The notes under the pieces: model-generated
Database searches by the model: none
What the model was told of the DNA's origin: nothing
The model's input: only the letters and a program-made list of their open reading frames with translations
Source of the DNA: Candidatus Eiseniibacteriota bacterium
Lineage (GTDB): Bacteria > Eisenbacteria > RBG-16-71-46 > CAIMUX01
NCBI GenBank assembly: GCA_020633975.1
Contig: JACKCR010000006.1
Location: 267,873 to 331,872, forward strand
Direction of reading: 5' to 3'
Length of the DNA stretch: 64,000 bases
Program-made: the position numbers and the translations under genes
Part shown: positions 22,769 to 40,700 of the stretch, piece by piece
Numbering within the stretch: the first letter of the stretch is position 1
How the letters are laid out: each line of letters begins with the position of its first letter

Positions 22769-22912
22769 GACCGATCCCTCCTCGAGAGTTGAGGACGAGC
22801 ACGCAGTCGGTAGCATCTTCCAACCTAGCACCGCGGTTCGTGTCTGCCTACGACGAGGAGATGCTCAGGTTACGCTCTTCTCGAATGTCCAGCTTCCGCG
22901 AAACTACTCGTT

Positions 22913-23944
22913 GTGGCAGGGGCCCACCTTCGCGAAGATCGACGGCCGGACAAGGGGGAATCCGTGTTGAGCCTCAATCGCACGTATGTGAAGGCGGCAG
23001 CCAAGGCGAGCCTCACTGGGCTCGGGGCGACCCAATGGCTCCGTCCGCGGGTTCGATGGGCGTTCCTGTTCGGGTGGGCCGTCTGGGGCCTCCTGATCGG
23101 CTTGTTCGGCGGGGCGATCGGTCTCGAGCCGAAGACCGCCCTCTTCATGGTGGCGAACCTCCTCGTTCTGTTCGTGCTCTACGACTTCGTCGTCAGCTAT
23201 CTGCTCCTCGAGCGACGGGACCGCGAAGGAGAGCTGGCCGTTGCGTCTCGCATCCAGGAAGGACTCTTCCCGACGTCGGTGCCGAGGGGCGAGAGGTATG
23301 CGTGTGCCGGGCTCACTCGCCCCGCGCGTGTGATCGGAGGCGACTACTGGGACGTCACCCTCGACGGAAGCGGTCGTCCCCTCCTCCTCGTGATCGACGT
23401 TGCGGGGAAGGGAGTGCCCGCCGCGCTCCTCATGGCCGGGCTCCGCTCGCAGTTCCACCTTCTCGCGCGGCAAAGGCTGGAGCCGGCGCAGATCGTCGGT
23501 GAACTCAACCGCGTGCTCGTGGCCGACAGCGGCCCTGGTGACTTCGCGACTTTGCTCCTCGTCTCCGTCGATACGGACGCCCGGAGCCTCGTCGCGGTCA
23601 ATGCGGGCCATCCTGCCGGACTTCTCGTCCGCCCGGACGGTTCCTATGAGGAACTCACGTCCTCGGGCCTCCCGGTAGGAATGCTCGACGGCGCGCCGTA
23701 CGAGGCTCGAGTCGTGCCCTGGAACGCCGGGGATCGACTCGTCCTCTACAGCGATGGCCTGCAGGATGTCGCGATGGACCAGGAGAGCGACGGGCTGTCG
23801 ACCGATGCGATCGCGCGATGCGTACACGACGCACGGAGTTCCGATCCGTCGCTGGTTCTCGAGGAGTTGATGAGTCTCGCGACGGACAACGCGCGTGACA
23901 TGGTCGAGGATGACGTGACCGTGCTGGTGTGTGCGTTCAAGTGA
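22913..23944 (+). CDS. PP2C-family Ser/Thr phosphatase (SpoIIE-like) with N-terminal membrane segments
   Basis: TM helices (WAFLFGWAVWGLLIGLFGGAIG; LFMVANLLVLFVLYDFVVSYLLL). PP2C motifs GDYWDV, DVAGKGVPAALLMAG, LVLYSDGL. Start is GTG 22913 (alternative 22966). Confidence 0.7.
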   Translation: MAGAHLREDRRPDKGESVLSLNRTYVKAAAKASLTGLGATQWLRPRVRWAFLFGWAVWGLLIGLFGGAIGLEPKTALFMVANLLVLFVLYDFVVSYLLLERRDREGELAVASRIQEGLFPTSVPRGERYACAGLTRPARVIGGDYWDVTLDGSGRPLLLVIDVAGKGVPAALLMAGLRSQFHLLARQRLEPAQIVGELNRVLVADSGPGDFATLLLVSVDTDARSLVAVNAGHPAGLLVRPDGSYEELTSSGLPVGMLDGAPYEARVVPWNAGDRLVLYSDGLQDVAMDQESDGLSTDAIARCVHDARSSDPSLVLEELMSLATDNARDMVEDDVTVLVCAFK

Positions 23945-24034
23945 CCTAGGCTCGACTGGCCACAGTAGCGCTCTCGCGACCGTGGCCGGACGATGCGGGC
24001 GTCCCCCAGGCGCGCTCCAGCGCGCTCCAAGAGT

Positions 24035-24058
24035 CCGCGACGGATCGGTCCGTCGCGG
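24035..24058. terminator. Candidate bidirectional terminator hairpin (CCGCGACGG-ATCGGT-CCGTCGCGG) between the convergent PP2C and VOC genes
   Basis: Perfect 9-bp stem followed by CTCTCCCGTTTCT on the + strand; located between stops at 23944 (+) and 24078 (-). Confidence 0.45.
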
Positions 24059-24077
24059 CTCTCCCGTTTCTACTCGA

Positions 24078-24518
24078 TCACTTCTTCTCGGAGCAGTTGA
24101 ACATCCAGTGGACACCGAACTTGTCGGTCAAGGAACCGAAGTAGTCGCCCCAGAACATGTCCGCGAGCGGCATGGTGACCGTTCCGCCCTCGCTGAGAGC
24201 CGAGAAGAGCTGGTCGGTCTCCTTGCGGGTGTCCGGCAGGAGGCTGATGTGGACGTTGTTGCCGAAGGTGGCCACGCGTCCGCCGCAGCTCTCACTGGTG
24301 TCGGTTCCCATCAGCATGTGGCCGCCCAGGATCGGGAGCGCCACGTGCATGACCATGTTCTTGTCGGCCTCGGCCACCGGGGGCATGCCTTCCGTCGGGG
24401 GAATGTCCGACATGCGCATTACGGGGCCGGCGAAGTCCGTCCCGAAGACCGACTTGTAGAATTCGAATGCCTCGGCGGTGTTGCCGTTGAAGTTCAAGTA
24501 CGTGCTGACGCTCGACAC
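24078..24518 (-). CDS. VOC/glyoxalase-fold protein (PhnB-like)
   Basis: TYLNFNGNTAEAFEFYKSVFG and MHVALPILGGHMLMGTD motifs. Probable start is GTG 24518 with GGAGGA 4 nt upstream; the track ORF extends to 24566. Confidence 0.65.
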   Translation of the reverse strand: MSSVSTYLNFNGNTAEAFEFYKSVFGTDFAGPVMRMSDIPPTEGMPPVAEADKNMVMHVALPILGGHMLMGTDTSESCGGRVATFGNNVHISLLPDTRKETDQLFSALSEGGTVTMPLADMFWGDYFGSLTDKFGVHWMFNCSEKK

Positions 24519-24765
24519 AGGTCCTCCTGAGTAGCTGATGGTGGAATGTGGGCCGGGGCCCACCAACTACCCGTTGGACTGTCGCGGCGCAAGGAACTCA
24601 TCGGTGTCCGGCGGACTTGTTCCTGGGCCACTCCGGTAGATTCCTCCGGACGCTCAGGTGATTCAACGGCCCCTAGTGGTGGTACTATCACAGACCCATC
24701 TGGGGCCATCGAGTTCTGGACGAAGAGGGTGCTGCAAGTGAATCGCTCCCAGATGGCAAGTCCCG

Positions 24766-24780
24766 CCCCCCCCCCCCCCC
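24766..24780. repeat. Homopolymeric C15 tract inside the 5' end of a membrane glycosyltransferase gene (candidate slipped-strand phase-variation switch)
   Basis: Exactly 15 consecutive C (24766-24780) after TCCCG. ATG 24753 lies 13 nt upstream and, with C15, is in frame 0 rather than the frame of the downstream membrane protein. Confidence 0.9.
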
Positions 24781-24798
24781 GGATGGGCGATTCTTCTC

Positions 24799-25884
24799 GT
24801 GGTGGCGCTCTCGACATGTGGGTTGTTTCACGGGTTCTACCAAGACGACTTCCGATGGCTCGAGGCAGCAGAGGTATGGAAACAGCACCCTGCCATGCTC
24901 TTCGACGCAAGTCTCCCTGGCTTCAGGAGACCGCTCGGTCAGCTTGTGTTCTTCGTTCAGTACTTGGTCTTCGGGCTGACGCCCTGGCCATACAACATGG
25001 TGAGCGCCGTCGTTCATCTTGTAGTGGCAGATCAAGTCAGGCGACTCGGACGTTCCTGGGCGGCCGGAATTGCCTTCGGCCTCGGGTCGGGCCACTACTC
25101 CAAGCCCGTTGCCTGGGCCTGCAGTCAGCCGATTCTGTGGGGGACGCTCCTGGCCCTACTCAGTTGGCGCAAGATCGCTGGCAAGCAAGCACTGCTTTGG
25201 GCCGGTCTGGCGGCCGCAGTCCCGTGGATCCACGACTTGTTCGGGTTGTTCGGGTTCGCTTTCCTGTTCCGAACCGGAGTGCCCGGGAGGGCGCGAGTGA
25301 TTCCAGCGGTGAGCTCGATTGCTTTCCTCGTGACCACGATGTCCGCGCGTAGTGAGTTGGACGGACAAGCAGGCGTCGGCCTTCACAGTGTCCTGACTCC
25401 GCTTCAAGGCTTGGGGGCGCTGCTGTTTCCGATCACCAGTGTAGGGCAGCTCCGTTCCGTCGGTCTGCCTGGCTCGCTGATTGTTGCCGGGATAGTCGTC
25501 TCCGTTGCGATCGTCGTCGCCTTGATCATCAGATCCGCAATGTCGAGTGTCCGCTCCAGAGATCAACTTCTCGTGGCCGCCTTGGTGCTTGCGCCTACCG
25601 CCGCGGCGAGCTTCTCGGCCGGATGGGTCGAGCCCAGATACTTGTATCCGATGGCTGCCTTTGCGCTGCCTGGGATCGCGCTAGCGGTGCCGCACGTCGC
25701 TGAGTGGCAGCGCTTGTTTGGAGCCGCTCCCGCCCGTCGTGCTGTCGCACTCGTCCTGATCTGCTCATGGGTCATCGGGTCACTCTACATGTACGGTCAA
25801 GCAAGAGAGTTCTCACGCACCACGCAACGGTGGCAGCCACTATTGGAACGAATTCAGGAACTCAGAGAGCCCGAGAAGCCTTGA
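24799..25884 (+). CDS. Polytopic membrane protein, putative GT-C-type glycosyltransferase (ArnT/PMT-like first-loop motif YQDDFRWLEAAE); as assembled it can only start at GTG 24799
   Basis: About 10 TM helices. With one fewer C in the tract, ATG 24753 reads MASPAPPPPGWAILLVVALSTCGLFHGFYQDDF..., which supplies the TM1 that should precede the DD motif. Confidence 0.6.
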   Translation: MVALSTCGLFHGFYQDDFRWLEAAEVWKQHPAMLFDASLPGFRRPLGQLVFFVQYLVFGLTPWPYNMVSAVVHLVVADQVRRLGRSWAAGIAFGLGSGHYSKPVAWACSQPILWGTLLALLSWRKIAGKQALLWAGLAAAVPWIHDLFGLFGFAFLFRTGVPGRARVIPAVSSIAFLVTTMSARSELDGQAGVGLHSVLTPLQGLGALLFPITSVGQLRSVGLPGSLIVAGIVVSVAIVVALIIRSAMSSVRSRDQLLVAALVLAPTAAASFSAGWVEPRYLYPMAAFALPGIALAVPHVAEWQRLFGAAPARRAVALVLICSWVIGSLYMYGQAREFSRTTQRWQPLLERIQELREPEKP

Positions 25885-26083
25885 TCGACGAGGTCTCCTG
25901 GACGCTTCCGCCTTACAATCCAGTGCAGCCGTTACAAGGTTCGAGCGGACTCCGCGTGGCCCCACGAAGCGCCGCTCGACACCATTGGACCTCGGTCCAA
26001 TTCCTGACGGAAACTCCAAGTATCATCTTTCCAGTGGCTTACCAGGCCCGCGTTCGCCCTCGTGATGCCGTCCCGCTGCCTCG

Positions 26084-26099
26084 TGGCACGCGCCTTGCG
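26084..26099 (+). promoter_or_regulatory. Sigma-54 (RpoN) -24/-12 promoter TGGCACG-CGCC-TTGCG
   Basis: Exact consensus TGGCACG-N4-TTGC with GG and GC 12 nt apart; about 50 nt upstream of ATG 26150 (RBS GGAGG 26141-26145). Confidence 0.65.
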
Positions 26100-26149
26100 T
26101 TTCCTCCTTTCGGAACTGAATCGCTCATCACCGCTTTCCAGGAGGAAAC

Positions 26150-26554
26150 ATGTCTCGCACTCGACGTCTCTCTGTCCCTGTGGCCCTCTCGTACTTGACC
26201 TTCGCGTCTGCCATCGCTACCGCGGCTCCGGCCGACATGCCAAACCCGACGCACGTCGTCAATGCAGCGAGCGTTCAGAACGCGATCAACGCCCAGGTCG
26301 CCGCCGAGGACGCGCAGCGGGAGCGGCTCCAGAAGATCCTCGCGGCTCCGCAGGTGGAACGGGTGGCCGAGCGCGCCGGGATCGACATGGAGACCGCGCG
26401 GGAACGTGTCGCGACGCTCTCCGGTGAAGAGCTTCAGCAGGTGACCCACCAGTCGGCGGGGCTCGATGCCGAACTCGCGGGTGGCGACACCATCGTCATC
26501 TCCGCCACCGCCGTCATCATCGTTCTTCTCCTCCTCATCCTTCTGACGGACTGA
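26150..26554 (+). CDS. Small exported protein (134 aa): Sec signal peptide, helical domain, then AELAGG followed by a C-terminal 20-aa hydrophobic anchor (DTIVISATAVIIVLLLLILLTD)
   Basis: ATG 26150 with GGAGG RBS. Signal peptide MSRTRRLSVPVALSYLTFASAIATA. Gly-Gly immediately precedes the C-terminal TM; no basic tail. Confidence 0.6.
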   Translation: MSRTRRLSVPVALSYLTFASAIATAAPADMPNPTHVVNAASVQNAINAQVAAEDAQRERLQKILAAPQVERVAERAGIDMETARERVATLSGEELQQVTHQSAGLDAELAGGDTIVISATAVIIVLLLLILLTD

Positions 26555-26559
26555 TCGGA

Positions 26560-28701
26560 GTGAGGACTCTGACGCCGGTCACCTGGCTCCGCTGCCTGCT
26601 GGTCCTGGCGTTCATCACGACTGCAGTCAGTAGCGCGTCGGCTGAAGACCGCGAGGCGAACATCTCGTCTCGCGGTTTCGTCGTTCCCTACGTCGCGCAG
26701 AGCGCGAGGCTGTGCGGAGGCGCGTGCCTTGCGATGGTGATGCGGTATTGGGGAGAGACTGGCGTCACTGCCGAAACCTTCGATGCCGCATTGGACGCGG
26801 GGGAGAAGGGGATGACGGCGAGGTCTCTCACGTTGGCAGCCCGGGCGCAGGGTTTCGACGCGTGGCCGTGGTACGCGACTTCGGACCAGATCCAGCACCA
26901 CCTCTCGCTCGGTCGCCCCGTGATCCTTCTCATCGATGCGGGCGCGTCCACGCTCCACTACGTCGTCGTGACGAGCTGGAACTCGAGTGCTGTGACCTTT
27001 CACGATCCCGCCGTCGGGCCCGCGCGGGCACGCCCGACCCAAGACTTCGTAGACGCGTGGGAGGCGAGCCAGTGTTGGGCCGTTCTCCTCCTGCCGTCGG
27101 GCTCGCCGGATGAGCCGTCATCGTGTGAGTTCTCCACCGACATCCCGCCTTCGGAGCAACTCTCCACCGATGAACGCTCTACTCGCGGACTCTCCACCGA
27201 CGAACTCTCCACCCAGGCGCATTCATCGGACGACTCCTCCATCGATGCGTCGTGTGCCGACCTCGTACGCCGTGCCGTCAGCCTAGCCGGTGCAGGGCAG
27301 CGCGACGAGGCGCGCGAACTTCTCGAGCTGGCTCACGGACGATGCCCGGACGAAGTGGCTCCTCTAAGGGAACTGGCGGGCCTTGCATTCCTCGAGAACG
27401 ATTGGACGGAAGCAGCGACCTTCGCTCGAGACGCGCTCCATCGCGATCCGGGCGACAGTCTCTGCCTCCGGCTCCTCGGCGGAAGTCGGTATCTCGCTCG
27501 CGACGTGGACGGGGCGCTCGCGGCATGGAACCGACTCGGGGAGCCGCGATTGGACCTCGTGCAGGTCGAAGGAAGTCACGATGTCCGATACCGACCGATT
27601 GCGGATCGGGTCGGACTGGATCATGGACACGTCATGTCGAGTCGCTCCTTCCAGCTTGCTCGTCGTCGCGTAGGAGAGATCCCCGCGCTCGGCCGTTCCC
27701 GTGTCTCACTCCGTCCGTTCGACGGCGGTATGGCGCAGGTCGACGTGGTCGTGGCGGAGAAACCGGTGATTCCTCTGCGCACCGTGGACCTCCTTCGTGT
27801 GGGGACGAGGGCCGCGCTTCGCCACGAAGTGGCCGTGCCGATCGCGAGTCCGACAGGGAACGGCGAACTCTGGACCGCACGTGGCCGGTGGACCGAGGAG
27901 CGACCGCTCGTAGAGCTGACACTTGTGATGCCGTCGCCTCGTTGGACCGGCGTGTGGCGGGTCGAAGGGTTGTGGGAACGCCAAGCCTACGCGTCAGACG
28001 ATCTCCTCGGAGGCTCGGATGCCATCATTCGGGAAACGCGGCGCCGCACCGCACTCTCCTACTCCGACTGGATCTCGCCGAACCTACGCGCGTCGCTCGG
28101 TGCGGCGGTCGAACGATGGGATGGCGGAGAACGTCGCGTCGGAGTCGAGCCAGAGTTCTTGGTTCGCGCCGCCCAGGACCGTCTCGCCGTCACCGCGGGT
28201 GGGGCGCTCTACCTACCACGCACAGGTGGCGACGATGGTGCCGTGCGAGTCGGGAGACTCCTCGTCGAATGGCGAAGCGGGGCCCGCGGAACGTGGTCGT
28301 CTCGCGCTGGGATCGAAGCAGTGTCGGCAAACGCTCCACACGCACTCTGGCCGGGCGCAGGAGTGGGACGATCGAGAGCAGGGCTCCTCCGTGCGCACCC
28401 GCTCCTCCGTGACGACGTCGTCACTGGCCCGGTGTTCGGCACGACGGTATGGAACTCCGGGGTCGAGCGACGCGTGGCTGGTTGGAACGGCGGTCTCCTC
28501 TCGACGGAAGTCGCGCTGTTTCTCGATGCGGCCGGCGCTGTGGGCGAAGAGACCGCCGACGATGCGCGTTGGCAGACCGATGCCGGAGTCGAACTGCGAG
28601 TTGGTGACCTCGGTGGGTCAGAGCCGGTGCGCCTGGACCTCGCACGTGGACTGAGGGACGGGCGCTGGGCCGTGTCGCTGTCGTGGGTGGCCGCCGACTA
28701 G
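26560..28701 (+). CDS. Secreted fusion protein: peptidase C39-like domain + TPR repeats + POTRA-like + putative Omp85/TpsB-like beta-barrel (713 aa)
   Basis: GTG 26560, 5 nt after the upstream stop. Signal peptide MRTLTPVTWLRCLLVLAFITTAVSSASA. C39-like core FVVPYVAQSARLCGGACLAMVMRYWGE...HYVVVTSW. TPR-like helices. POTRA-like VQVEGSHDVRYRPIADRVGLDHG...VDVVVAEKP. About 300-aa C-terminal region of alternating beta-strand character ending VRLDLARGLRDGRWAVSLSWVAAD. Confidence 0.6.
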   Translation: MRTLTPVTWLRCLLVLAFITTAVSSASAEDREANISSRGFVVPYVAQSARLCGGACLAMVMRYWGETGVTAETFDAALDAGEKGMTARSLTLAARAQGFDAWPWYATSDQIQHHLSLGRPVILLIDAGASTLHYVVVTSWNSSAVTFHDPAVGPARARPTQDFVDAWEASQCWAVLLLPSGSPDEPSSCEFSTDIPPSEQLSTDERSTRGLSTDELSTQAHSSDDSSIDASCADLVRRAVSLAGAGQRDEARELLELAHGRCPDEVAPLRELAGLAFLENDWTEAATFARDALHRDPGDSLCLRLLGGSRYLARDVDGALAAWNRLGEPRLDLVQVEGSHDVRYRPIADRVGLDHGHVMSSRSFQLARRRVGEIPALGRSRVSLRPFDGGMAQVDVVVAEKPVIPLRTVDLLRVGTRAALRHEVAVPIASPTGNGELWTARGRWTEERPLVELTLVMPSPRWTGVWRVEGLWERQAYASDDLLGGSDAIIRETRRRTALSYSDWISPNLRASLGAAVERWDGGERRVGVEPEFLVRAAQDRLAVTAGGALYLPRTGGDDGAVRVGRLLVEWRSGARGTWSSRAGIEAVSANAPHALWPGAGVGRSRAGLLRAHPLLRDDVVTGPVFGTTVWNSGVERRVAGWNGGLLSTEVALFLDAAGAVGEETADDARWQTDAGVELRVGDLGGSEPVRLDLARGLRDGRWAVSLSWVAAD

Positions 28702-33280: not shown

Positions 33281-33294
33281 CCGGGCCAGTCCGC

Positions 33295-33678
33295 TTACCG
33301 GCGTCTCCCCGCCTTTCGATGGAGCATCCAAACCACGGCTCCCATCAGGCCATCTACGACCGCGCATGCCGGCACCAACCACGAGGGGTGGTCCCAGAAG
33401 GGGACGGATGCGAGGAAGATCGTCGCCGCTGTCTTCGCGGAGACGAGGAGGAAGACTCCACCGTAGCGTGAGTGCTCGGCGAGGTACCCGGTGGCGACGA
33501 CGAGGTGGAGAATGCCGGCCTGCCGGGTGAAGAAGAGGGTGCTCGTAGGTTCCCAGCCCGAGAACTCGATGCTCCATGCGGGGAAGAGGAGCAGCACGAG
33601 TCCGATGACGTAGCTGTGGAGTGCGACGAGCACGACAGCGAGGCGTTCGAGTCGTCTCCACTGCTCCCGTCCGGTCAT
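33295..33678 (-). CDS. Small 4-TM membrane protein downstream of the hydrogenase operon
   Basis: ATG 33678..33676. MTGREQWRRLERLAVVLVALHSYVIGLVLLLFPAW...; the upstream part of the track ORF is noise. Confidence 0.45.
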   Translation of the reverse strand: MTGREQWRRLERLAVVLVALHSYVIGLVLLLFPAWSIEFSGWEPTSTLFFTRQAGILHLVVATGYLAEHSRYGGVFLLVSAKTAATIFLASVPFWDHPSWLVPACAVVDGLMGAVVWMLHRKAGRRR

Positions 33679-33733
33679 GTCTCTCTCACTTGGGCACGTG
33701 CATTGCTCGACGTGCTCGGCCCTTCCCGCCCGA

Positions 33734-34261
33734 TCACGCTTCGCGCTCCCACCACGGGCTCGGCTCGCGTGCGTCCGTTCTTCGCGCGATGTGGTATCCA
33801 AGCGTCTCGAGCTCATCCACGACATGCTGGATCATGAGCGGAATGGAAGCGCGCACCGGCCCACTGAGGCCGATCGTGGAGTCGGTTCGTTCCGGGATCA
33901 CTCCCACGAGGAGCACGTCGGCTGGCCCTTTGCCGGCGAACTCGAGCGAAAGGAGCGTCTCCTTGACTCCAGGGTCGTGAGGACCGATGCGCGCGCTCGG
34001 TGCGTGAGCAAGGATCTGGTCCTTGCGATAGAGACGGATCTCTCCGGCCGGTCCGTCCGATCGGACCGTGTCGAGGAGGATGATCCTCTCTCGTCCGGCG
34101 ATGTGCGGCAGGATGTCGAGCCCGGGCGTGCCCAAGTCCTCGATTGCGACAGTGTCGGGAAGGTCGAATTGGGAGCAGAGGTACTCGATCGCGTATGGGC
34201 CCGCGGCATCGTCACCCATGAGGACGTTCCCGAGGCCCAAGATCGCGACGTTTCCTTCCAC
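33734..34261 (-). CDS. hybD: [NiFe] hydrogenase maturation endopeptidase (HybD/HyaD family)
   Basis: ILGLGNVLMGDDAAG motif. GTG 34261 lies 11 nt after the large-subunit stop. Confidence 0.8.
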   Translation of the reverse strand: MEGNVAILGLGNVLMGDDAAGPYAIEYLCSQFDLPDTVAIEDLGTPGLDILPHIAGRERIILLDTVRSDGPAGEIRLYRKDQILAHAPSARIGPHDPGVKETLLSLEFAGKGPADVLLVGVIPERTDSTIGLSGPVRASIPLMIQHVVDELETLGYHIARRTDAREPSPWWEREA

Positions 34262-34272
34262 TCCCGTCCGCC

Positions 34273-35970
34273 TCAGAGCGCCTTGACCCGGGCGATCTCG
34301 TTTCCTTCGACGTCGAGCGTGTGGACCGCACAGGCGATACACGGGTCGAAGGAGTGGATCGTCCGAAGCACTTCGAGTGGCCTCTCCGGATCCGCGATCG
34401 GGTTGCCGACGAGGGAAGCCTCGTACGGGCCCGGGCGGTTCTGCTCGTCGCGCGGTCCGGCGTTCCAGGTCGACGGAACCACCGCCTGGTAGTTCGCAAT
34501 CTTCCCGTCCCGGATCACGACGAAGTGAGAGAGCGTTCCGCGCGGCGCTTCGTGGAACCCGAAGCCGACCTGCTCTCCCTGGAAGACCGGCGGTTCGAAG
34601 ATCGCCGTGTCACCCGACGCGATGTTCTCGACGAGGAGCTGCCAGTGCTTCTGGGCCATCTCGCAGATCACCGCCGTCCGGACCGCACGCGCCAGGTGCC
34701 GGCCGAGGGTCGAGTGGAGCATGGCGGGCGTCAGCTTCGTCTTGGCAACGGCACCGGCCGTGTCGAGTGCGAAGTTGAGCCAGCGCTGCGTGGGCTCGTG
34801 ACCGGTCGCGGCACCGACCAGCACCTGGGCCAGCGGACCGACCTGCATCGGCTTGTCGCCGAAGCGCGGGGCCTTGATCCAGGAGTAGGCGCCGTCGTCC
34901 TCGAAGCCAGTGTACTTCGGAACGGTGTCTTCCTCGTAGGGATGACGTGTCCAGTCGCCGTCGTACCAGGCGTGGGCGATCGACTCGGTCACGTTCTCGC
35001 TGAAGTACGGATCCGTGAACGACGTGATCGGCTTCGCGGTCGCGAGATCGCCGTTCATGATCGTCCCGCCGGGGAGGTCGAACTTCGTACCGGCGCTGTC
35101 GAGCGGAAGATCCGGTACTGCGAGGTAGTTCGTCACACCCGAGCCGTAGCCGAGCCAGTCCGCGTAGAGCGCGCCGATGGCGCATACGTCCGGCAGGTAG
35201 ACCTGCTGGATGAACGCGACCATCTCGTCGAGGAGCGACTTGATCGTGTAGAGCTTCGTCATGTTGAGCGTCGACTCGTTGTCGAGGTTGATCGCATTGG
35301 CGACGCCACCCACGGCGAGGTTCTGGATGTTTGGAGTCTTCGATCCCAGGATCGTCACGACCTGGTTGGCTTTCCTCTGATAGTCGAGTGCCTGGAGATA
35401 GTGCGACACCGCGAGTAGGTTCACCTCGGGTGGCAGCTTCATCGCAGGATGGCCCCAATAGCCGTTCGCGAAGGGACCGAGCTGTCCCGCCTCGACGAAA
35501 CCGGCCAGCCTCGCCTTCACCGCCGTCATCTCCTTGACGCTGTTCATCGGCCAATCCGAGAGCGACTGCGCCAGGTTGGCTGTCGCGGCCGGATCGGCCT
35601 GAAGGGCCGAGACCACGTCCACCCAATCGAGGGCGGAGAGGTGGTAGAAGTGCACGATGTGATCGTGCATCGCGTGTGCGGCGAGGATGATGTTCCGGAT
35701 GTACTGGGCGTTGAGCGGAACTTGGATCCCGACCGCGTTCTCCACCGCGCGGACGGAAGCGATCGCGTGCACCGTGGTGCAGACGCCGCAGAACCGCTGC
35801 GTGAAGAGCCACGCTTCGCGCGGATCCCGGCCTTGGAGGATGACTTCGATTCCGCGCCACATCTGTCCGGACGACCACGCCTTCTTTACGCGGCCACCAT
35901 CGACCTCACAATCGATCCGGAGATGCCCTTCGATCCGGGTGACGGGATCGACCACGATTCTCTGACTCAT
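34273..35970 (-). CDS. hybC: [NiFe] hydrogenase large subunit
   Basis: N-terminal RFCGVCTTVHAIA (L1 RxCGxC) and C-terminal DPCIACAVH (L2 DPCxxCxxH); 565 aa. Confidence 0.95.
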   Translation of the reverse strand: MSQRIVVDPVTRIEGHLRIDCEVDGGRVKKAWSSGQMWRGIEVILQGRDPREAWLFTQRFCGVCTTVHAIASVRAVENAVGIQVPLNAQYIRNIILAAHAMHDHIVHFYHLSALDWVDVVSALQADPAATANLAQSLSDWPMNSVKEMTAVKARLAGFVEAGQLGPFANGYWGHPAMKLPPEVNLLAVSHYLQALDYQRKANQVVTILGSKTPNIQNLAVGGVANAINLDNESTLNMTKLYTIKSLLDEMVAFIQQVYLPDVCAIGALYADWLGYGSGVTNYLAVPDLPLDSAGTKFDLPGGTIMNGDLATAKPITSFTDPYFSENVTESIAHAWYDGDWTRHPYEEDTVPKYTGFEDDGAYSWIKAPRFGDKPMQVGPLAQVLVGAATGHEPTQRWLNFALDTAGAVAKTKLTPAMLHSTLGRHLARAVRTAVICEMAQKHWQLLVENIASGDTAIFEPPVFQGEQVGFGFHEAPRGTLSHFVVIRDGKIANYQAVVPSTWNAGPRDEQNRPGPYEASLVGNPIADPERPLEVLRTIHSFDPCIACAVHTLDVEGNEIARVKAL

Positions 35971-35971
35971 G

Positions 35972-37162
35972 CTACTTCCTCCGCGTTGCGGTCAGAGGCT
36001 TTGGAGCCCCGCCAAGGATCGGGAAACGCCGGACCAGGACGATGTAGAGCAGGATCTCCGCTGCGACCAATCCGATCGTGATGAACATCTCCGGGATGGA
36101 AGGGAAGTAGGACCATCCCTTTCCCGGGTTGAAGGCGACCAGGTAGGCGTCGAAGCGGTAGAGGCTCCCAGCCAGAATGATGGCGAGAGCCGCGCGGAAC
36201 ATTCCGCCGATCCGGGTCTTTCCACGTCCCGCGAGGAGATAGAAAGCGGGGGCGAGGAAGAGCACCATCTCGAGGAGGAACATCCACGAGTAGAGGTCGA
36301 ACTGGAACACCAGCCCGAGCTTTCCGTGGATGACGATGTCGACGATGCGAAGCACGACGTAAGCCAGGAGGACGTACGCGATCACTCCACCGAGGGAGGC
36401 GAGCATCTTGTCTTCCTTGGCCCGGCCGAAGCCGCGGCTCGCGAGCGTCGACTCCATGACTACGACCGCGTACCCCATGGCGATGCAGGAAAGGAGGAAG
36501 AGAAGCGGCAACCACGCCGTGTGCCAGAGCGGATGGAGCCGCGGTCCCGCCAGCATGATCACCGTTCCGAGCGATGACTGGTGCATCGTCGGAAGAAGGA
36601 TCCCAAGAGCGATGATCCAGAGCAGCGCCTTGTCCAGAGCACCCGAGACGTTGCGCGCCGCGTTCCCGAGACTCGTGTCCTGCGTCTTCCACTTCTCGAT
36701 GAAAGCCGGCGACATCTCGATCCAGAGGACGACGACGTACGCCATGACGCAGAGCGCCACCTCGAGGAGTGCCGAAGCATGGTTCCACTTGTCGACCGAG
36801 AGCGGAATCCGCCAGATGAACCAAGGACGACCGACGTCGACGACGATCGCGAGTGCTGCGATCGAGTACCCGAGCGCACTCGTCAGAATGGCGGGACGAA
36901 CGAGCGGGTGGTACTTCCCGCGGTTCATCACGTAGACGAGGAGTGCCATCGCGTACCCACCGCACGCGAGCGCGGTGCCGGTGACGACGTCGAATGCGAT
37001 CCAGATCCCCCAGGGATACCCGTCACTGAGGCCCGTGGAAGGACCGAGTCCGACCGCGAACCGCCAGATCATGAGGACGATGCCGAGAAGAGTGAGGCCA
37101 AAGAGGACCTTGCCGGGTCCGTTGAGAGCCTTTCCTCCGACGGGGACGGCGATTTCACTCAT
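35972..37162 (-). CDS. hybB: Hydrogenase integral membrane subunit, NrfD/PsrC family (HybB-like)
   Basis: About 10 TM helices; position between the FeS subunit and the large subunit is typical of Hyb-type operons. Confidence 0.85.
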   Translation of the reverse strand: MSEIAVPVGGKALNGPGKVLFGLTLLGIVLMIWRFAVGLGPSTGLSDGYPWGIWIAFDVVTGTALACGGYAMALLVYVMNRGKYHPLVRPAILTSALGYSIAALAIVVDVGRPWFIWRIPLSVDKWNHASALLEVALCVMAYVVVLWIEMSPAFIEKWKTQDTSLGNAARNVSGALDKALLWIIALGILLPTMHQSSLGTVIMLAGPRLHPLWHTAWLPLLFLLSCIAMGYAVVVMESTLASRGFGRAKEDKMLASLGGVIAYVLLAYVVLRIVDIVIHGKLGLVFQFDLYSWMFLLEMVLFLAPAFYLLAGRGKTRIGGMFRAALAIILAGSLYRFDAYLVAFNPGKGWSYFPSIPEMFITIGLVAAEILLYIVLVRRFPILGGAPKPLTATRRK

Positions 37163-38039
37163 GGTCCGCCCCCTTCCCGCTCCGACGATTCCGTAGCATC
37201 ACTGCCCCGAGAGCCGCGTAGAGCGCCGCGGGTGCGACGAATCCCTTGTAGATCCCGTGCTGGATCTCGCGGTTGAGAGCGGGCACCGATTCCGCGCCGA
37301 GTTCCGGAAGGCCTAGCTTGTCGAACGGAACATGCGAGATGTAGAGCACCTGGGTTCCGCCGCCGTCTTCTTCGCCGTAGACCTTGTCGACGTAACGACC
37401 CGGATTCTCCGCGATCCGGCGCTTCGCTTCGGCCAGAAGCTCGTCGCGCTTTCCGTAGATCACGGCCTGGCGAGGACAGACCTCGCAGCACGCAGGGATC
37501 TTGCCTTCGGCCAGCCGGTGGTTGCAGAGCTCGCACTTCACGATCTTGGGAGCCGCGCTCGCCCACTGGAACTTCGGTATGTTGTAAGGACAGGCGACCT
37601 GGCAGTAGCGGCAACCGATGCACCGGTTGCTGTCCCAAGTGACGATTCCGTACTCGCGCTTCTGAAGCGCTCCGATCATGCAAGCACCCACACAGGCGGG
37701 ATCGACGCAGTGCATGCACTGCTGCTTCATGTAGGAGACGCGATCGCCTTCCTTGTAGAGCTTGATGATGTTCTTGGTTTGATCGTTGAGCGAGAGGGGG
37801 GCGTCGTGGAGGTCGTCGGTGCGGGTGTCCGGCTCGAGGTCGTTGGCCTTGTGGCAGGCGACGACGCAGGTCTTGCAGCCGATGCAGAGGGTCGTATCGT
37901 AGAGCATTCCCACCGCGTCGGGCGGAGCCTCGCGCCGCTCCCCGGCCTTGGCCTCGCCTGTCACTCCCGCCGCCGCGGCTCCGGCCATTGCGGTGCCGGC
38001 GGCTGCGATCGACTTGAGGAAGGACCGTCTGTCTGCCAT
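37155..38039 (-). CDS. hybA: Tat-exported 4x[4Fe-4S] ferredoxin-type electron-transfer subunit (HybA-like)
   Basis: RRSFLKSIAAAG Tat motif. Four CxxCxxCxxxCP clusters (CIGCKTCVVAC, CMHCVDPACVGAC, CIGCRYCQVACP, CELCNHR...CCEVCP). Confidence 0.9.
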   Translation of the reverse strand: MADRRSFLKSIAAAGTAMAGAAAAGVTGEAKAGERREAPPDAVGMLYDTTLCIGCKTCVVACHKANDLEPDTRTDDLHDAPLSLNDQTKNIIKLYKEGDRVSYMKQQCMHCVDPACVGACMIGALQKREYGIVTWDSNRCIGCRYCQVACPYNIPKFQWASAAPKIVKCELCNHRLAEGKIPACCEVCPRQAVIYGKRDELLAEAKRRIAENPGRYVDKVYGEEDGGGTQVLYISHVPFDKLGLPELGAESVPALNREIQHGIYKGFVAPAALYAALGAVMLRNRRSGKGADHE

Positions 38040-38042
38040 GGC

Positions 38043-39140
38043 CTATGCCTCCTTCTCGGGCGTCGACTCGGCGTCGAGCTTGCGGGAAGCCATGTAGCCG
38101 GCCCCGACGAGCGCGCCGCCGATGAGACCACCTACGCCGGTGACGACCGGACTCACGCCGCCATGGTCGGCTGCGATCGGCGGATAGGTGTCAGGTGGAG
38201 TCGGGCGTTCGATCTGCGCGGTCGAATGGATCGGGGCGCGGAAGGCGAGAGACTGCTCGGTACAGCCGACGCAGGGGTGTCCGATGCCGATCGGCCACGC
38301 GCCGGGCACTTCGCCGAAATGCTGGATCGAGCAGTTCGCGTGTGTCTGCGGTCCCTTGCAACCAAGACGGTAGAGGCAGTAGCCCTGCCGATGCCCCTCG
38401 TCGCCGAACTGGAGCGCGAAGCGTCCTGCATCGAAGTGCGGACGACGCGGGCAGTCCTCGTGGATGACCCGACCGTAGGCGAACTTCGGCCGTCCCTTCT
38501 CGTCGAGCGCGGGAAGCGTTCCCATCGTCACGAACTGGAGGACGGTTCCGAGAAGGTTGTACGGATTCGCAGGGCAGCCTGGAAGCGTCACCACCGTCTT
38601 GCCTTCGAGGATCATCGGGGCGCCGGTCGCGCCGGTCGGGTTCGGGTCCGCGGCGGGAATGCCGCCGAAGCTTGCACACGACCCGATCGCGATGATTGCC
38701 CCTGCGCTCGCCGCGACGTCATTCAGGATGTCGACGGCGGTGCGGCCACCGACCTGACAGTAGATCCCGTTGTCCTTCGTGGGAATCGCACCCTCGACGA
38801 TGCATACGTACTTGCCCTTATTCGCCTCCATCGCCTCATGGAGAGACGCCTCGGCTTGGTGTCCGGCCGCTGCGGATAGGGTCTCGTGGTAGTCGAGCGA
38901 GATGAGGTCGAGGATCAGAGTGGCGATGTCCGGATGTGCCGAGCGCAGGAGCGACTCGGTACATCCGGTGCATTCCTGGAAGTGGAGCCATATCACCGAG
39001 GGTTTCAGCCCCTTGGATGCCGCCTCGGCCATGCGCAGTGCAGCGGACGAAGAAAGGCCAACGGACGCTGCGGCCATGGAAATGATTCGGATGAAGTCAC
39101 GGCGGGATACGGGTGCGCCGAGGTCGGGATCAAGGGCCAT
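38043..39140 (-). CDS. hybO: [NiFe] hydrogenase small subunit, Tat signal and C-terminal membrane anchor
   Basis: SRRDFIRIISMAAAS Tat motif; proximal cluster motif FQECTGCTESLL; C-terminal TM GGLIGGALVGAGYMA. Confidence 0.95.
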   Translation of the reverse strand: MALDPDLGAPVSRRDFIRIISMAAASVGLSSSAALRMAEAASKGLKPSVIWLHFQECTGCTESLLRSAHPDIATLILDLISLDYHETLSAAAGHQAEASLHEAMEANKGKYVCIVEGAIPTKDNGIYCQVGGRTAVDILNDVAASAGAIIAIGSCASFGGIPAADPNPTGATGAPMILEGKTVVTLPGCPANPYNLLGTVLQFVTMGTLPALDEKGRPKFAYGRVIHEDCPRRPHFDAGRFALQFGDEGHRQGYCLYRLGCKGPQTHANCSIQHFGEVPGAWPIGIGHPCVGCTEQSLAFRAPIHSTAQIERPTPPDTYPPIAADHGGVSPVVTGVGGLIGGALVGAGYMASRKLDAESTPEKEA

Positions 39141-39487
39141 GAGAAGCCTCCCGTTCGGGACGATGGGGAATTAGTAGGCTGAACTGCCTACCAGTAGAAG
39201 GTTGAGCCAGTATGTGCCAGTTACAACACGCGATTCAAAGTAGAACTTCTTGGTTCACTCATGGCGCTCGCTAATCGCGATCGTGTGACCGTTCGGCCGA
39301 AGTGCCGCTGCTGCTGTACTCAACGAGCCCCCGCCTCAGAGTCCGTACGCAGAACCACCAATTGCTCGCCGTTCGTCGTCGCTCCAGTATCTGGTACAAT
39401 GCGGAATGATCCGATCGGAGCCGAGACTGCCCTGAGCTGGAGTTCGTGCTTCGGTCGCGCTACCGTGCGCCGAACAGTGGGGACGGC

Positions 39488-39835
39488 ATGCACGAATACT
39501 CACTAGTTTCTAGCCTGATGGACGAGATCGATCGTCAGGCCGGTGCGCACCGGGCCACCTCGGTCCAGAAGGTGCACGTTCGCCTCGGAGAGATGGCTGG
39601 GGTGGACGCTGACCTCTTCCGCACCGCCTTCGAGATGATCCAGCCGCACACGATCTGCGCCGAGGCCGAGCTCGTCCTTCACTCCGAACCCGCCGGTTGG
39701 GCTTGTCCCCTCTGCGGACGTCGCCATCCTCTTGGTGCTACGCTTCGATGCGAGGCATGCGATGTGCCTCTGCGTCCGGATGGAGGACGGGATCTCGTCC
39801 TCGAACGCCTCGAAATGGAGGTCTCTCATGTGTGA
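39488..39835 (+). CDS. hypA: Hydrogenase nickel-incorporation protein HypA
   Basis: MHEYSLVSSLMDEI N-terminus; zinc site CPLCG...CEAC. Confidence 0.85.
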   Translation: MHEYSLVSSLMDEIDRQAGAHRATSVQKVHVRLGEMAGVDADLFRTAFEMIQPHTICAEAELVLHSEPAGWACPLCGRRHPLGATLRCEACDVPLRPDGGRDLVLERLEMEVSHV

Positions 39836-40700
39836 GGACTGCGGCTGTGGCGACTCCGAACTCGTCCCCGTGGAGGTCCAACACCGGATCCTTTCCGAGA
39901 ACGACCGCGTAGCGTCACACAACCGTGAGCATTTTGCGGAGCAAGGCGTTCTCGCGATCAATCTGATGGGATCTCCGGGCTCGGGAAAGACCGCGCTACT
40001 CGAAGCGTCGGTCGGCCTAGGGATCGGGTCCATTTCTGCGGTGAGCGGTGACCTAGCGACCGACCGCGATGCAGACCGGCTCGTGCGGAAGGGCATCGTC
40101 GCCCGTTCGATCACGACCGGCTCGGCATGTCACCTCGATGCGTCTCTGCTTCATCACTCACTGCACGACGAGGAACTCGCGAAGGCAGTGGCCGCGAGTG
40201 AGTTCTTCTTCATCGAGAATGTGGGCAACCTCGTTTGTCCGGCCATCTACGATCTCGGACAGGCCGCGAACGTCGTCGCGCTGTCCGTGACCGAGGGGGA
40301 AGACAAGCCCATCAAGTACCCCGTGATGTTCGACCGGGCCGACCTCGTGGTCGTCACGAAGGTGGACCTCCTTCCGTACCTTCCGGGGTTCTCGCTCGAT
40401 GCGCTCAAGGACGGGCTCGCGCAGGTGATGCCGGATCCGCGCGTCCTCTTCGTCTCGGCGGTGACCGGCGAAGGGATGGAGGGCTGGAAGGCGTGGCTGC
40501 TCCAGCAACGGGCAAGGCTTCTCGAGTCGGTTGCGGATGCGCAGGAGTATGGGCATGGTCACGGTCACGAACATGACCACGAACATGGCCACGCGCACTC
40601 TCATCACGATCACTCGCACGATGACGGGAGCCATGGCCACCACGATCACGACCACGACCATAGCGACCATTCCACACCACACGTCCATCCCACCCGCTGA
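39828..40700 (+). CDS. hypB: Hydrogenase nickel-incorporation GTPase HypB with unusual C-terminal His-rich tail
   Basis: Start MCEDCGCG (CxxCGC metal site); ATG 39828 overlaps the hypA stop by 8 nt. P-loop GSPGSGKT. C-terminal HGHGHEHDHEHGHAHSHHDHSHDDGSHGHHDHDHDHSDHS. Confidence 0.9.
   Translation: MCEDCGCGDSELVPVEVQHRILSENDRVASHNREHFAEQGVLAINLMGSPGSGKTALLEASVGLGIGSISAVSGDLATDRDADRLVRKGIVARSITTGSACHLDASLLHHSLHDEELAKAVAASEFFFIENVGNLVCPAIYDLGQAANVVALSVTEGEDKPIKYPVMFDRADLVVVTKVDLLPYLPGFSLDALKDGLAQVMPDPRVLFVSAVTGEGMEGWKAWLLQQRARLLESVADAQEYGHGHGHEHDHEHGHAHSHHDHSHDDGSHGHHDHDHDHSDHSTPHVHPTR

Follow-up and report, generated by a model that had tools for sequence, protein, structure and literature searches.

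The present analysis concerns a window, meaning here the whole 64,000-nucleotide stretch of DNA analysed, in which a run of 15 cytosines separates an ATG from the body of a membrane glycosyltransferase gene of predicted GT-C fold. The frame arithmetic, the requirement for a first transmembrane helix (TM1), the preservation of the conserved residues and the way in which long G/C homopolymers are known to behave together make a candidate phase-variable locus the best explanation: a GT-C gene acquired recently would be under a slippage ON/OFF switch and would have been captured in its OFF state. The probability of this reading is put at roughly 0.5. The features on which the argument is built are the following.

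24078-24518, minus strand: VOC/glyoxalase-family gene (146 aa, MCB9465300.1), the divergent neighbour, with a GTG start and an AGGAGG Shine-Dalgarno, present in all strains
24614-25900: replacement cassette of 1,287 bp, in which the ATG, the C15 tract and the GT-C gene are preceded by 139 bp that also belong to the cassette
24739-24741, plus strand: TGA stop closing the ORF frame upstream, with no canonical start in frame before 24799
24753-24755, plus strand: ATG, the sole canonical start codon 5' of the tract, in the -1 frame relative to the ORF as assembled
24766-24780, plus strand: C15 homopolymer tract (G15 on the template strand), encoding Pro in all frames
24781-25884, plus strand: body of the membrane glycosyltransferase gene of predicted GT-C fold, 367 codons and a stop, beginning GWAILLVVALSTCGLFHGFYQDDFRWLE, with an invariant DD at residues 22-23
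24799-24801, plus strand: GTG, the first canonical in-frame start as assembled
26150-26554, plus strand: PA2779-family protein (134 aa, MCB9465301.1), co-directional downstream, present in all strains
26560-28701, plus strand: C39 peptidase-TPR protein (713 aa, MCB9465302.1), co-directional downstream, present in all strains

The tract was found at 24766-24780, between the ATG and the membrane-protein body, as the sequence-only reading had proposed. Positions 24753-24789 read ATG GCA AGT CCC G, then C15, then GGATGGGCG, so the order is a G followed by 15 C and not, as had been worded, GCC followed by 15 C. A run-length census of the 64-kb window gave C6 11 times, G6 13 times and, as the next-longest homopolymer after C15, a single G7, the only longer run being C15 itself. 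Under a base-frequency model (p(C)=0.319), about 0.005 C or G runs of 15 are expected in 64 kb and, by our own arithmetic, about 4e-5 if the observed decay of ~0.25 per added base is extrapolated from C6. In other assemblies of the species, 57.9 kb of DNA held no homopolymer of 8 or more. C15 is a strong outlier against this background, as had been claimed, with the correction that the GC content of the window was measured at 64.9% instead of 68%. Its length is also above the hypermutability threshold of ~8-9 bases for G/C homopolymers.

As assembled, the frame of ATG 24753 gives the product MASPAPPPPRMGDSS... and reaches a stop after 199 codons without ever encoding the membrane protein, in agreement with the earlier claim. 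The ORF stands in the +1 frame relative to this ATG, i.e. one base out, and its own frame is open from 24742 through the tract. When the tract was rebuilt at other lengths, ATG 24753 was fused to the ORF at C14 (376 aa) and at C17 (377 aa), while C13 and C16 led to a stop at codon 74-75; full-length fusion hence needs a tract length of 3n+2 (14, 17, ...). The proposal that one C fewer joins the ATG to TM1 and the acidic motif was therefore confirmed by the 376-aa fusion. In terms of a toggle, C14 and C17 would be in frame and C13, C15 and C16 out of frame if ATG 24753 is the start used. The sole tract length seen in the assembly, which represents one strain, is C15, the out-of-frame state.

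The identity of the ORF was addressed with sequence searches and fold modelling. The reconstructed protein had no Pfam or NCBIfam match at E up to 1, and a word-indexed homologue search of 5.8 billion clusters returned nothing. An exhaustive phmmer search of 1.84 billion representatives, on the other hand, recovered 63 relatives, of which 16 scored below 1e-10; the top matches were 34-39% identical over their full length (395-446 aa). In a 19-sequence alignment (A1, residue numbering starting with the G at 24781), 15 residues were invariant (F19, D22, D23, R50, F64, H79, F99, G102, H105, K108, W112, H151, W282, R286 and Y289), and all of them, DD included, are intact in the window ORF. The D22-D23 pair (HGFYQDDF) is invariant in 19/19 sequences and is placed directly after the TM1 helix, residues 2-16, where the first extracytoplasmic loop of GT-C enzymes begins and carries its conserved acidic residues. 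There is no second lesion in the 367 codons. The codon-position GC content (GC3 ~0.70, second position ~0.50) fits the ORF frame, with a GC3 below that of the neighbouring genes (0.8-0.9). Judged from these sequence comparisons, the ORF is a conserved gene.

A single-sequence AF2 prediction was unusable (pLDDT 45.6), and an alignment-based AF2 model was used instead. This model was confident throughout and all-helical, with about 11 long helices (those listed being 2-16, 51-64, 68-90, 113-131, 137-149, 169-197, 231-255, 257-275, 285-305 and 316-346), so that at least 8 TM helices, as in a polytopic protein, are predicted. It showed 3D similarity to solved GT-C enzymes (PDB 5f15, 9e61, 3waj and 5ogl) at an identity of only 8-14%, and a search of PDB sequences with the family profile gave noise only. 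Of the curated GT-C sequence families (PMT_2, ArnT/GT83, GT39 and similar), none includes the window protein, and PMT_2 was touched only by the distant relatives P0029, P0030 and P0034, at or below threshold. Because the ORF is conserved, its invariant residues are intact and the fold model is confident, the product is assigned, on the strength of that model, as a GT-C-fold glycosyltransferase of a small family outside all curated profiles. The claim of a GT-C-type membrane glycosyltransferase thus agrees with the fold model and with the invariant DD after TM1; its ArnT/PMT-like character is retained for the fold and the acidic motif but not as a sequence-family match in Pfam or NCBIfam. These relatives define a small, unannotated GT-C family of ~400 aa with invariant HGFYxDDF, GH..KP..W, H151 and W..R..Y.

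In the DNA of the relatives, the family gene repeatedly precedes a gene for a large secreted protein on the same strand, with a gap of 60-290 bp (L001 7227-9965; L007 1449-2831; L002 1940-5038; L030 3815-6655). These secreted neighbours include an M14 carboxypeptidase with FlgD_ig, a FlgD_ig/Por_Secre_tail protein and a heparinase-like protein. Since secreted-protein genes recur 3' of family members, there is a hint in this gene order that the GT-C family may glycosylate secreted or surface proteins.

The position of the translation start is central to the switch reading. A scan for ATG, GTG and TTG codons agreed with the sequence-only reading in that GTG 24799 is the first possible canonical start of the membrane protein as assembled. 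TM1 hydrophobic coding (GWAILLVVALSTCGLF) begins at the first codon after the tract, upstream of this GTG, and in the AF2 model W2-F16 forms a helix with a pLDDT of 93 for residues 1-10. Initiation at GTG 24799 would cost TM1 6 of its 15 modelled residues, and the 10 residues then remaining ahead of HGFY are too few for a membrane span; the earlier statement that TM1 is lost at this start is accordingly right for these six residues, the remainder of the helix being kept. It had also been considered that orthologues could start at the equivalent of GTG 24799 and lack TM1, which is not what was found: 14 of 18 relatives have at least 28 residues before DD, made of a short K/R segment followed by a hydrophobic helix of ~17-20 residues, with K or R before TM1 in 16/18. 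Two family representatives have predicted N-termini of just 15 residues before HGFY. For one short relative, P0008 (L024 177-340), the database start is an internal ATG; when the frame is extended to an ATG farther 5' (MISNSALWRVMAFGLGLL...), TM1 is complete, so its short N-terminus is a start-calling error, as short N-termini in this family may be in general. With C14, ATG 24753 gives 30 residues before DD, inside the family range, and initiation would probably take place at this codon. A Shine-Dalgarno is absent within 20 nt of ATG 24753 and also at GTG 24799/24802, in an organism with AGGAGG or GGAGG at ~6/10 called starts, and the MASPAPPPP N-terminus has zero positive charge.

Initiation elsewhere, at GTG 24799/24802 or at the non-canonical ATT 24790 or ATC 24742, would make the tract part of a leader or promoter, and its length could then modulate transcription and not the frame. 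In its favor, the frame open through the tract would encode (M)APRWQVPPPPPPGW, with Arg and Trp as in the pre-TM1 segments of the relatives, whose N-termini it resembles, and a GAAGAGGG element ends 11 nt before ATC 24742; the two 15-residue N-termini mentioned above also point this way. For APRWQVPPPPPPGW, however, the only start available is ATC 24742, and ATC and ATT start codons are very rare. The GTG start is too short and without Shine-Dalgarno, one of the short relatives is mis-called, and neither a sigma-70-like promoter nor a terminator signal was found in 24400-26100. Consequently, an alternative start is regarded as improbable. An upstream motif shared by ATG 24753, the PA2779 gene and the gene found in other strains at this site (TGAATCGCTC / ATCGCTCCCAG) was also considered and discarded, its occurrence in the window being at chance level. 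No Rfam family or tRNA was detected in the window.

The C15 allele might also not be OFF if tRNA-Pro slipped by +1, or RNA polymerase slipped on the run of C, and the full-length protein were made in this way, possibly tuned by EF-P or m1G37 status. The ORF indeed lies in the +1 frame of ATG 24753, and the ATG frame offers four consecutive CCC-C opportunities near the start codon, six codons past the ATG (CCC CCC CCC CCC C), i.e. a slippery string with the downstream ORF in +1. Basal +1 slippage is low with modified tRNA-Pro. CCC-C/U is the canonical +1-prone proline context, and poly-Pro frameshifts are suppressed by EF-P (PMC7577736). Against recoding, no stimulatory RNA structure was found around the tract, where folding was weaker than in shuffled sequences (z = +2.64), and an internal SD-like element is absent, as is a hungry or stop codon 3' of the tract, where the 0 frame goes on with CGG. 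The arrangement is moreover conserved in no relative examined and the low basal slippage also counts against it, which leaves recoding as the least credible of the explanations considered. If it were true, tRNA-Pro modification and EF-P would set the GT-C output instead of or besides DNA tract length, giving a physiological rheostat atop a genetic switch in an uncultivated phylum.

To place the tract in its family context, the DNA of ten distinct relatives (L001-L008, L024-L027, L029-L031) was compared, and none had a run of 7 or more at the gene start. For this reason, the tract is not a family trait. The sole run of at least 7 near any family start is a C8 at L031 263-270, 52 nt upstream of the annotated GTG start of P0004. 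The N-termini of the relatives are nevertheless Pro-rich (APPA, PDPG, PPHR, RPPAR), so that of the orthologous ATG-poly(C/Pro) N-terminus that had been looked for, the Pro-rich part was found and the poly-C run was not (0/10). This composition suggests that C15 may have arisen from a run of CCN codons turned pure C.

Homopolymers of 10 or more are classic sites of plus or minus 1 errors on all platforms, and one rival explanation is a miscounted consensus. The true or modal tract would then be C14 (or C17) and the gene intact, the extra C resulting from a sequencing or assembly error or from PCR stutter; the tract would still be mutable and the OFF state an artefact. Errors of this type at long homopolymers are discussed in PMC8808543. 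The explanation gains from the family-typical N-terminus obtained with one C fewer and from the 15/15 intact invariant residues. Compared with independent assemblies, on the other hand, the window DNA showed zero gap openings over 4,449, 3,682 and 3,592 bp, bar one shared 18-nt indel polymorphism, and the assembly is for this reason free of general indel noise. With no indels against independent assemblies across more than 15 kb compared, an error would be needed at exactly the tract. A miscount is therefore held to be unlikely, even if it weighs more than the other alternatives. The 18-nt indel separates strain groups in DNA otherwise 98-99% identical (window 22001-24613 versus L014, L017, L018 and L019), and in L016 an overlap or duplication of ~55 bp was noted near window 23052-23106, inside the SpoIIE-phosphatase gene.

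Comparison with other strains revealed that the gene and the tract belong to a strain-specific cassette. The species, Candidatus Eisenbacteria (Eiseniibacteriota, taxid 2212470), is represented by many assemblies, which were reached through exact look-ups of the neighbouring proteins. Ten same-species contigs with the VOC/glyoxalase gene were 98-99.9% identical to the window until 24613 and then diverged; in one of them (L014, GCA_020431765.1) the match resumed at 25901. A different segment of 2,631 bp (L014 1275-3905) is common to the 7 contigs running past the breakpoint and has, on the opposite strand, the gene for a 784-aa protein (MCA9757905.1) with a signal peptide, six or more GACC...C.PNPCP cysteine repeats and no Pfam match. 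As the flanks match at both sides while the interior differs, 24614-25900 constitutes a replacement cassette. At least 7 other assemblies carry the 784-aa allele, the rest end at or before the junction and 0 carry the cassette, which is specific to the source strain among the assemblies compared. Its junctions are clean, the right one lying 16 nt past the GT-C stop codon, and no meaningful direct or inverted repeats, as a mobile-element signature, were present at its ends. The PA2779-family and C39 peptidase-TPR pair lies directly 3' of the cassette and is divergent from the 784-aa gene in other strains.

A second copy of the cassette was searched for by exact-protein look-ups with five N-terminal variants, by a JGI metagenome scan with the window protein and by a GTDB genome scan, and none was found in ~15 billion predicted proteins, the JGI metagenomes or the GTDB genomes. 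The GTDB scan returned a single relative of 32% identity (BLASTP 2e-24) from a Candidatus Eisenbacteria MAG (L001 = P0013), and a second JGI scan (alignment A2) four distant relatives of 31-42% identity only. In two samples, the contigs L019 (SRR17907852) and L023 (SRR15882951) terminate precisely at the left boundary of the cassette (locus position 1 = window 24613). Such ends fit an assembly-graph branch with two coexisting alleles, and these samples may hold more copies of the cassette.

A poly-G/C sequencing artefact could also have produced a chimeric join. Both ends of the cassette are clear of the tract, however, the left one by 152 bp and the right one by 1,120 bp, and the 152 bp on the left find no match in either allele of the other strains. 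Such a join is unlikely. The MAG GCA_041390305.1 (L028) was set aside as a different species (75-90% nucleotide identity) in which the whole VOC/GT-C segment is absent.

Two further observations were made in the window. Positions 19579-19920, at the 3' end of the minus-strand ORF 19583-22831, are 77% identical in DNA to L014 3448-3785, a match that corresponds to the C-terminal ~110 codons of the 1082-aa ORF and the C-terminus of the 784-aa alternative-allele protein; this similarity points to a paralogous C-terminal domain in a putative family of large secreted proteins without Pfam match. A [NiFe] hydrogenase cluster occupies window 33290-40000, with the large subunit at 34273-35970 (minus strand) and with NrfD-like, 4Fe-4S, small-subunit, HycI protease and Hyp maturation genes, and its DNA is 90% identical to that of the second Eisenbacteria species (L028).

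In the NCBI numbering of the source MAG, MCB9465300.1 (VOC) is followed immediately by MCB9465301.1 (PA2779 family), which leaves the GT-C gene without a protein record, consistent with a disrupted frame. This missing record could also indicate a dead gene, in which a recently acquired GT-C gene was killed by a slippage frameshift and is decaying, with an accidental tract and no adaptive switching. The out-of-frame state as the only one observed, the absent Shine-Dalgarno, a C14 product of 376 aa versus ~400-420 aa in relatives with several loop deletions in the alignment, and a cassette seen in no other assembly while at least 7 carry the other allele, all go in this direction. A decaying gene is nonetheless hard to reconcile with 367 codons free of a second lesion, with the retention of all invariant residues, with the persisting coding GC-position signature and with an AF2 model predicted confidently throughout, and a C15 run is difficult to explain without expansion or maintenance. 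Gene death is thus considered doubtful, slightly more so than the miscount.

Taken together, these results are better accommodated by a slipped-strand ON/OFF switch, for which the following course can be proposed. The cassette would have been acquired horizontally, bringing a GT-C gene with C15 in its N-terminal codons. Translation would start at ATG 24753, cross the tract as a series of Pro codons and continue with TM1 and the catalytic HGFYQDDF loop; at C15 this ATG would be out of frame (OFF) and would give the 199-aa nonsense product. Slipped-strand mispairing at the 15-base G/C homopolymer during replication would change the tract length and, as a G/C 15-mer is intrinsically slippage-prone, both ON and OFF cells are to be expected in the population. 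Such a mixture would provide heritable, reversible and stochastic control of surface or envelope glycosylation. Homopolymer tracts at 5' ends are established reversible inactivators (PMC2831843), and a poly-G tract is known in the glycosyltransferase gene pgtA (PMC2193922). The phase-variation reading as first put forward is therefore upheld for the tract, the frames, the fold and the need for TM1, while the absence of a Shine-Dalgarno at the ATG, the uncharged N-terminus, the tract-free relatives, the occurrence of one such tract in 64 kb, OFF as the sole state seen and the lack of a second cassette copy in the collections searched count against it; that ATG 24753 is used and that the tract switches in length and has adaptive value is what we infer.

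If the tract does switch, homopolymer contingency loci would extend to an uncultivated environmental phylum, Eiseniibacteriota, and to an integral-membrane GT-C enzyme. To our knowledge, such loci are known almost entirely from pathogens, e.g. Neisseria, Helicobacter and Campylobacter. That the gene forms a strain-specific replacement cassette further suggests that the cell surface is under diversifying selection. Selection of this kind is usually imposed by phages or predators, which may be its source at the cassette site too. The case also shows how homopolymer-broken frames make genes vanish from protein databases. What is new here is the cassette nature of the gene together with its tract and 139 bp of upstream DNA, the kind of switch itself being well known.

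In comparison with known systems, the enzyme differs from ArnT, PMT and oligosaccharyltransferase-type GT-C proteins (PDB 5f15, 9e61, 3waj, 5ogl) by its 8-14% identity and lack of Pfam/NCBIfam membership, and by its size of ~376 aa without the large periplasmic C-terminal domain. The tract resembles CCC-C +1 frameshift-prone proline sites (PMC7577736) in having the same quadruplet near an initiation codon with the downstream ORF in +1, whereas the known cases are translational errors or suppressor contexts and not programmed expression, and the window tract has no stimulator. It is similar to the 5' poly(A) of Listeria monocytogenes inlA (Orsi et al. 2010, PMC2831843) in its position few codons after the start and in the reversible frameshift inactivation that it would cause. 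The inlA tract and 5'-end tracts in general, in contrast, consist of A/T and are ~7 bases long, against C15 in a 65% GC genome.

The Helicobacter fucosyltransferase poly-C and Campylobacter poly-G tracts are homopolymer contingency loci. Unlike the window gene, which would encode an integral-membrane GT-C enzyme, lacks a Shine-Dalgarno and is set in a strain-specific replacement cassette, the pathogen loci encode soluble or peripheral GT-A/GT-B enzymes. They also come from cultured, host-adapted pathogens with measured switching, as opposed to an uncultivated environmental phylum. With these loci and with Neisseria gonorrhoeae pgtA (poly-G, PMC2193922), the window gene nonetheless shares a long G/C run at the probable 5' end of the coding sequence for an enzyme that modifies glycans, a reading frame that would be kept by only one in every three tract lengths, and a strain-variable presence of the gene.
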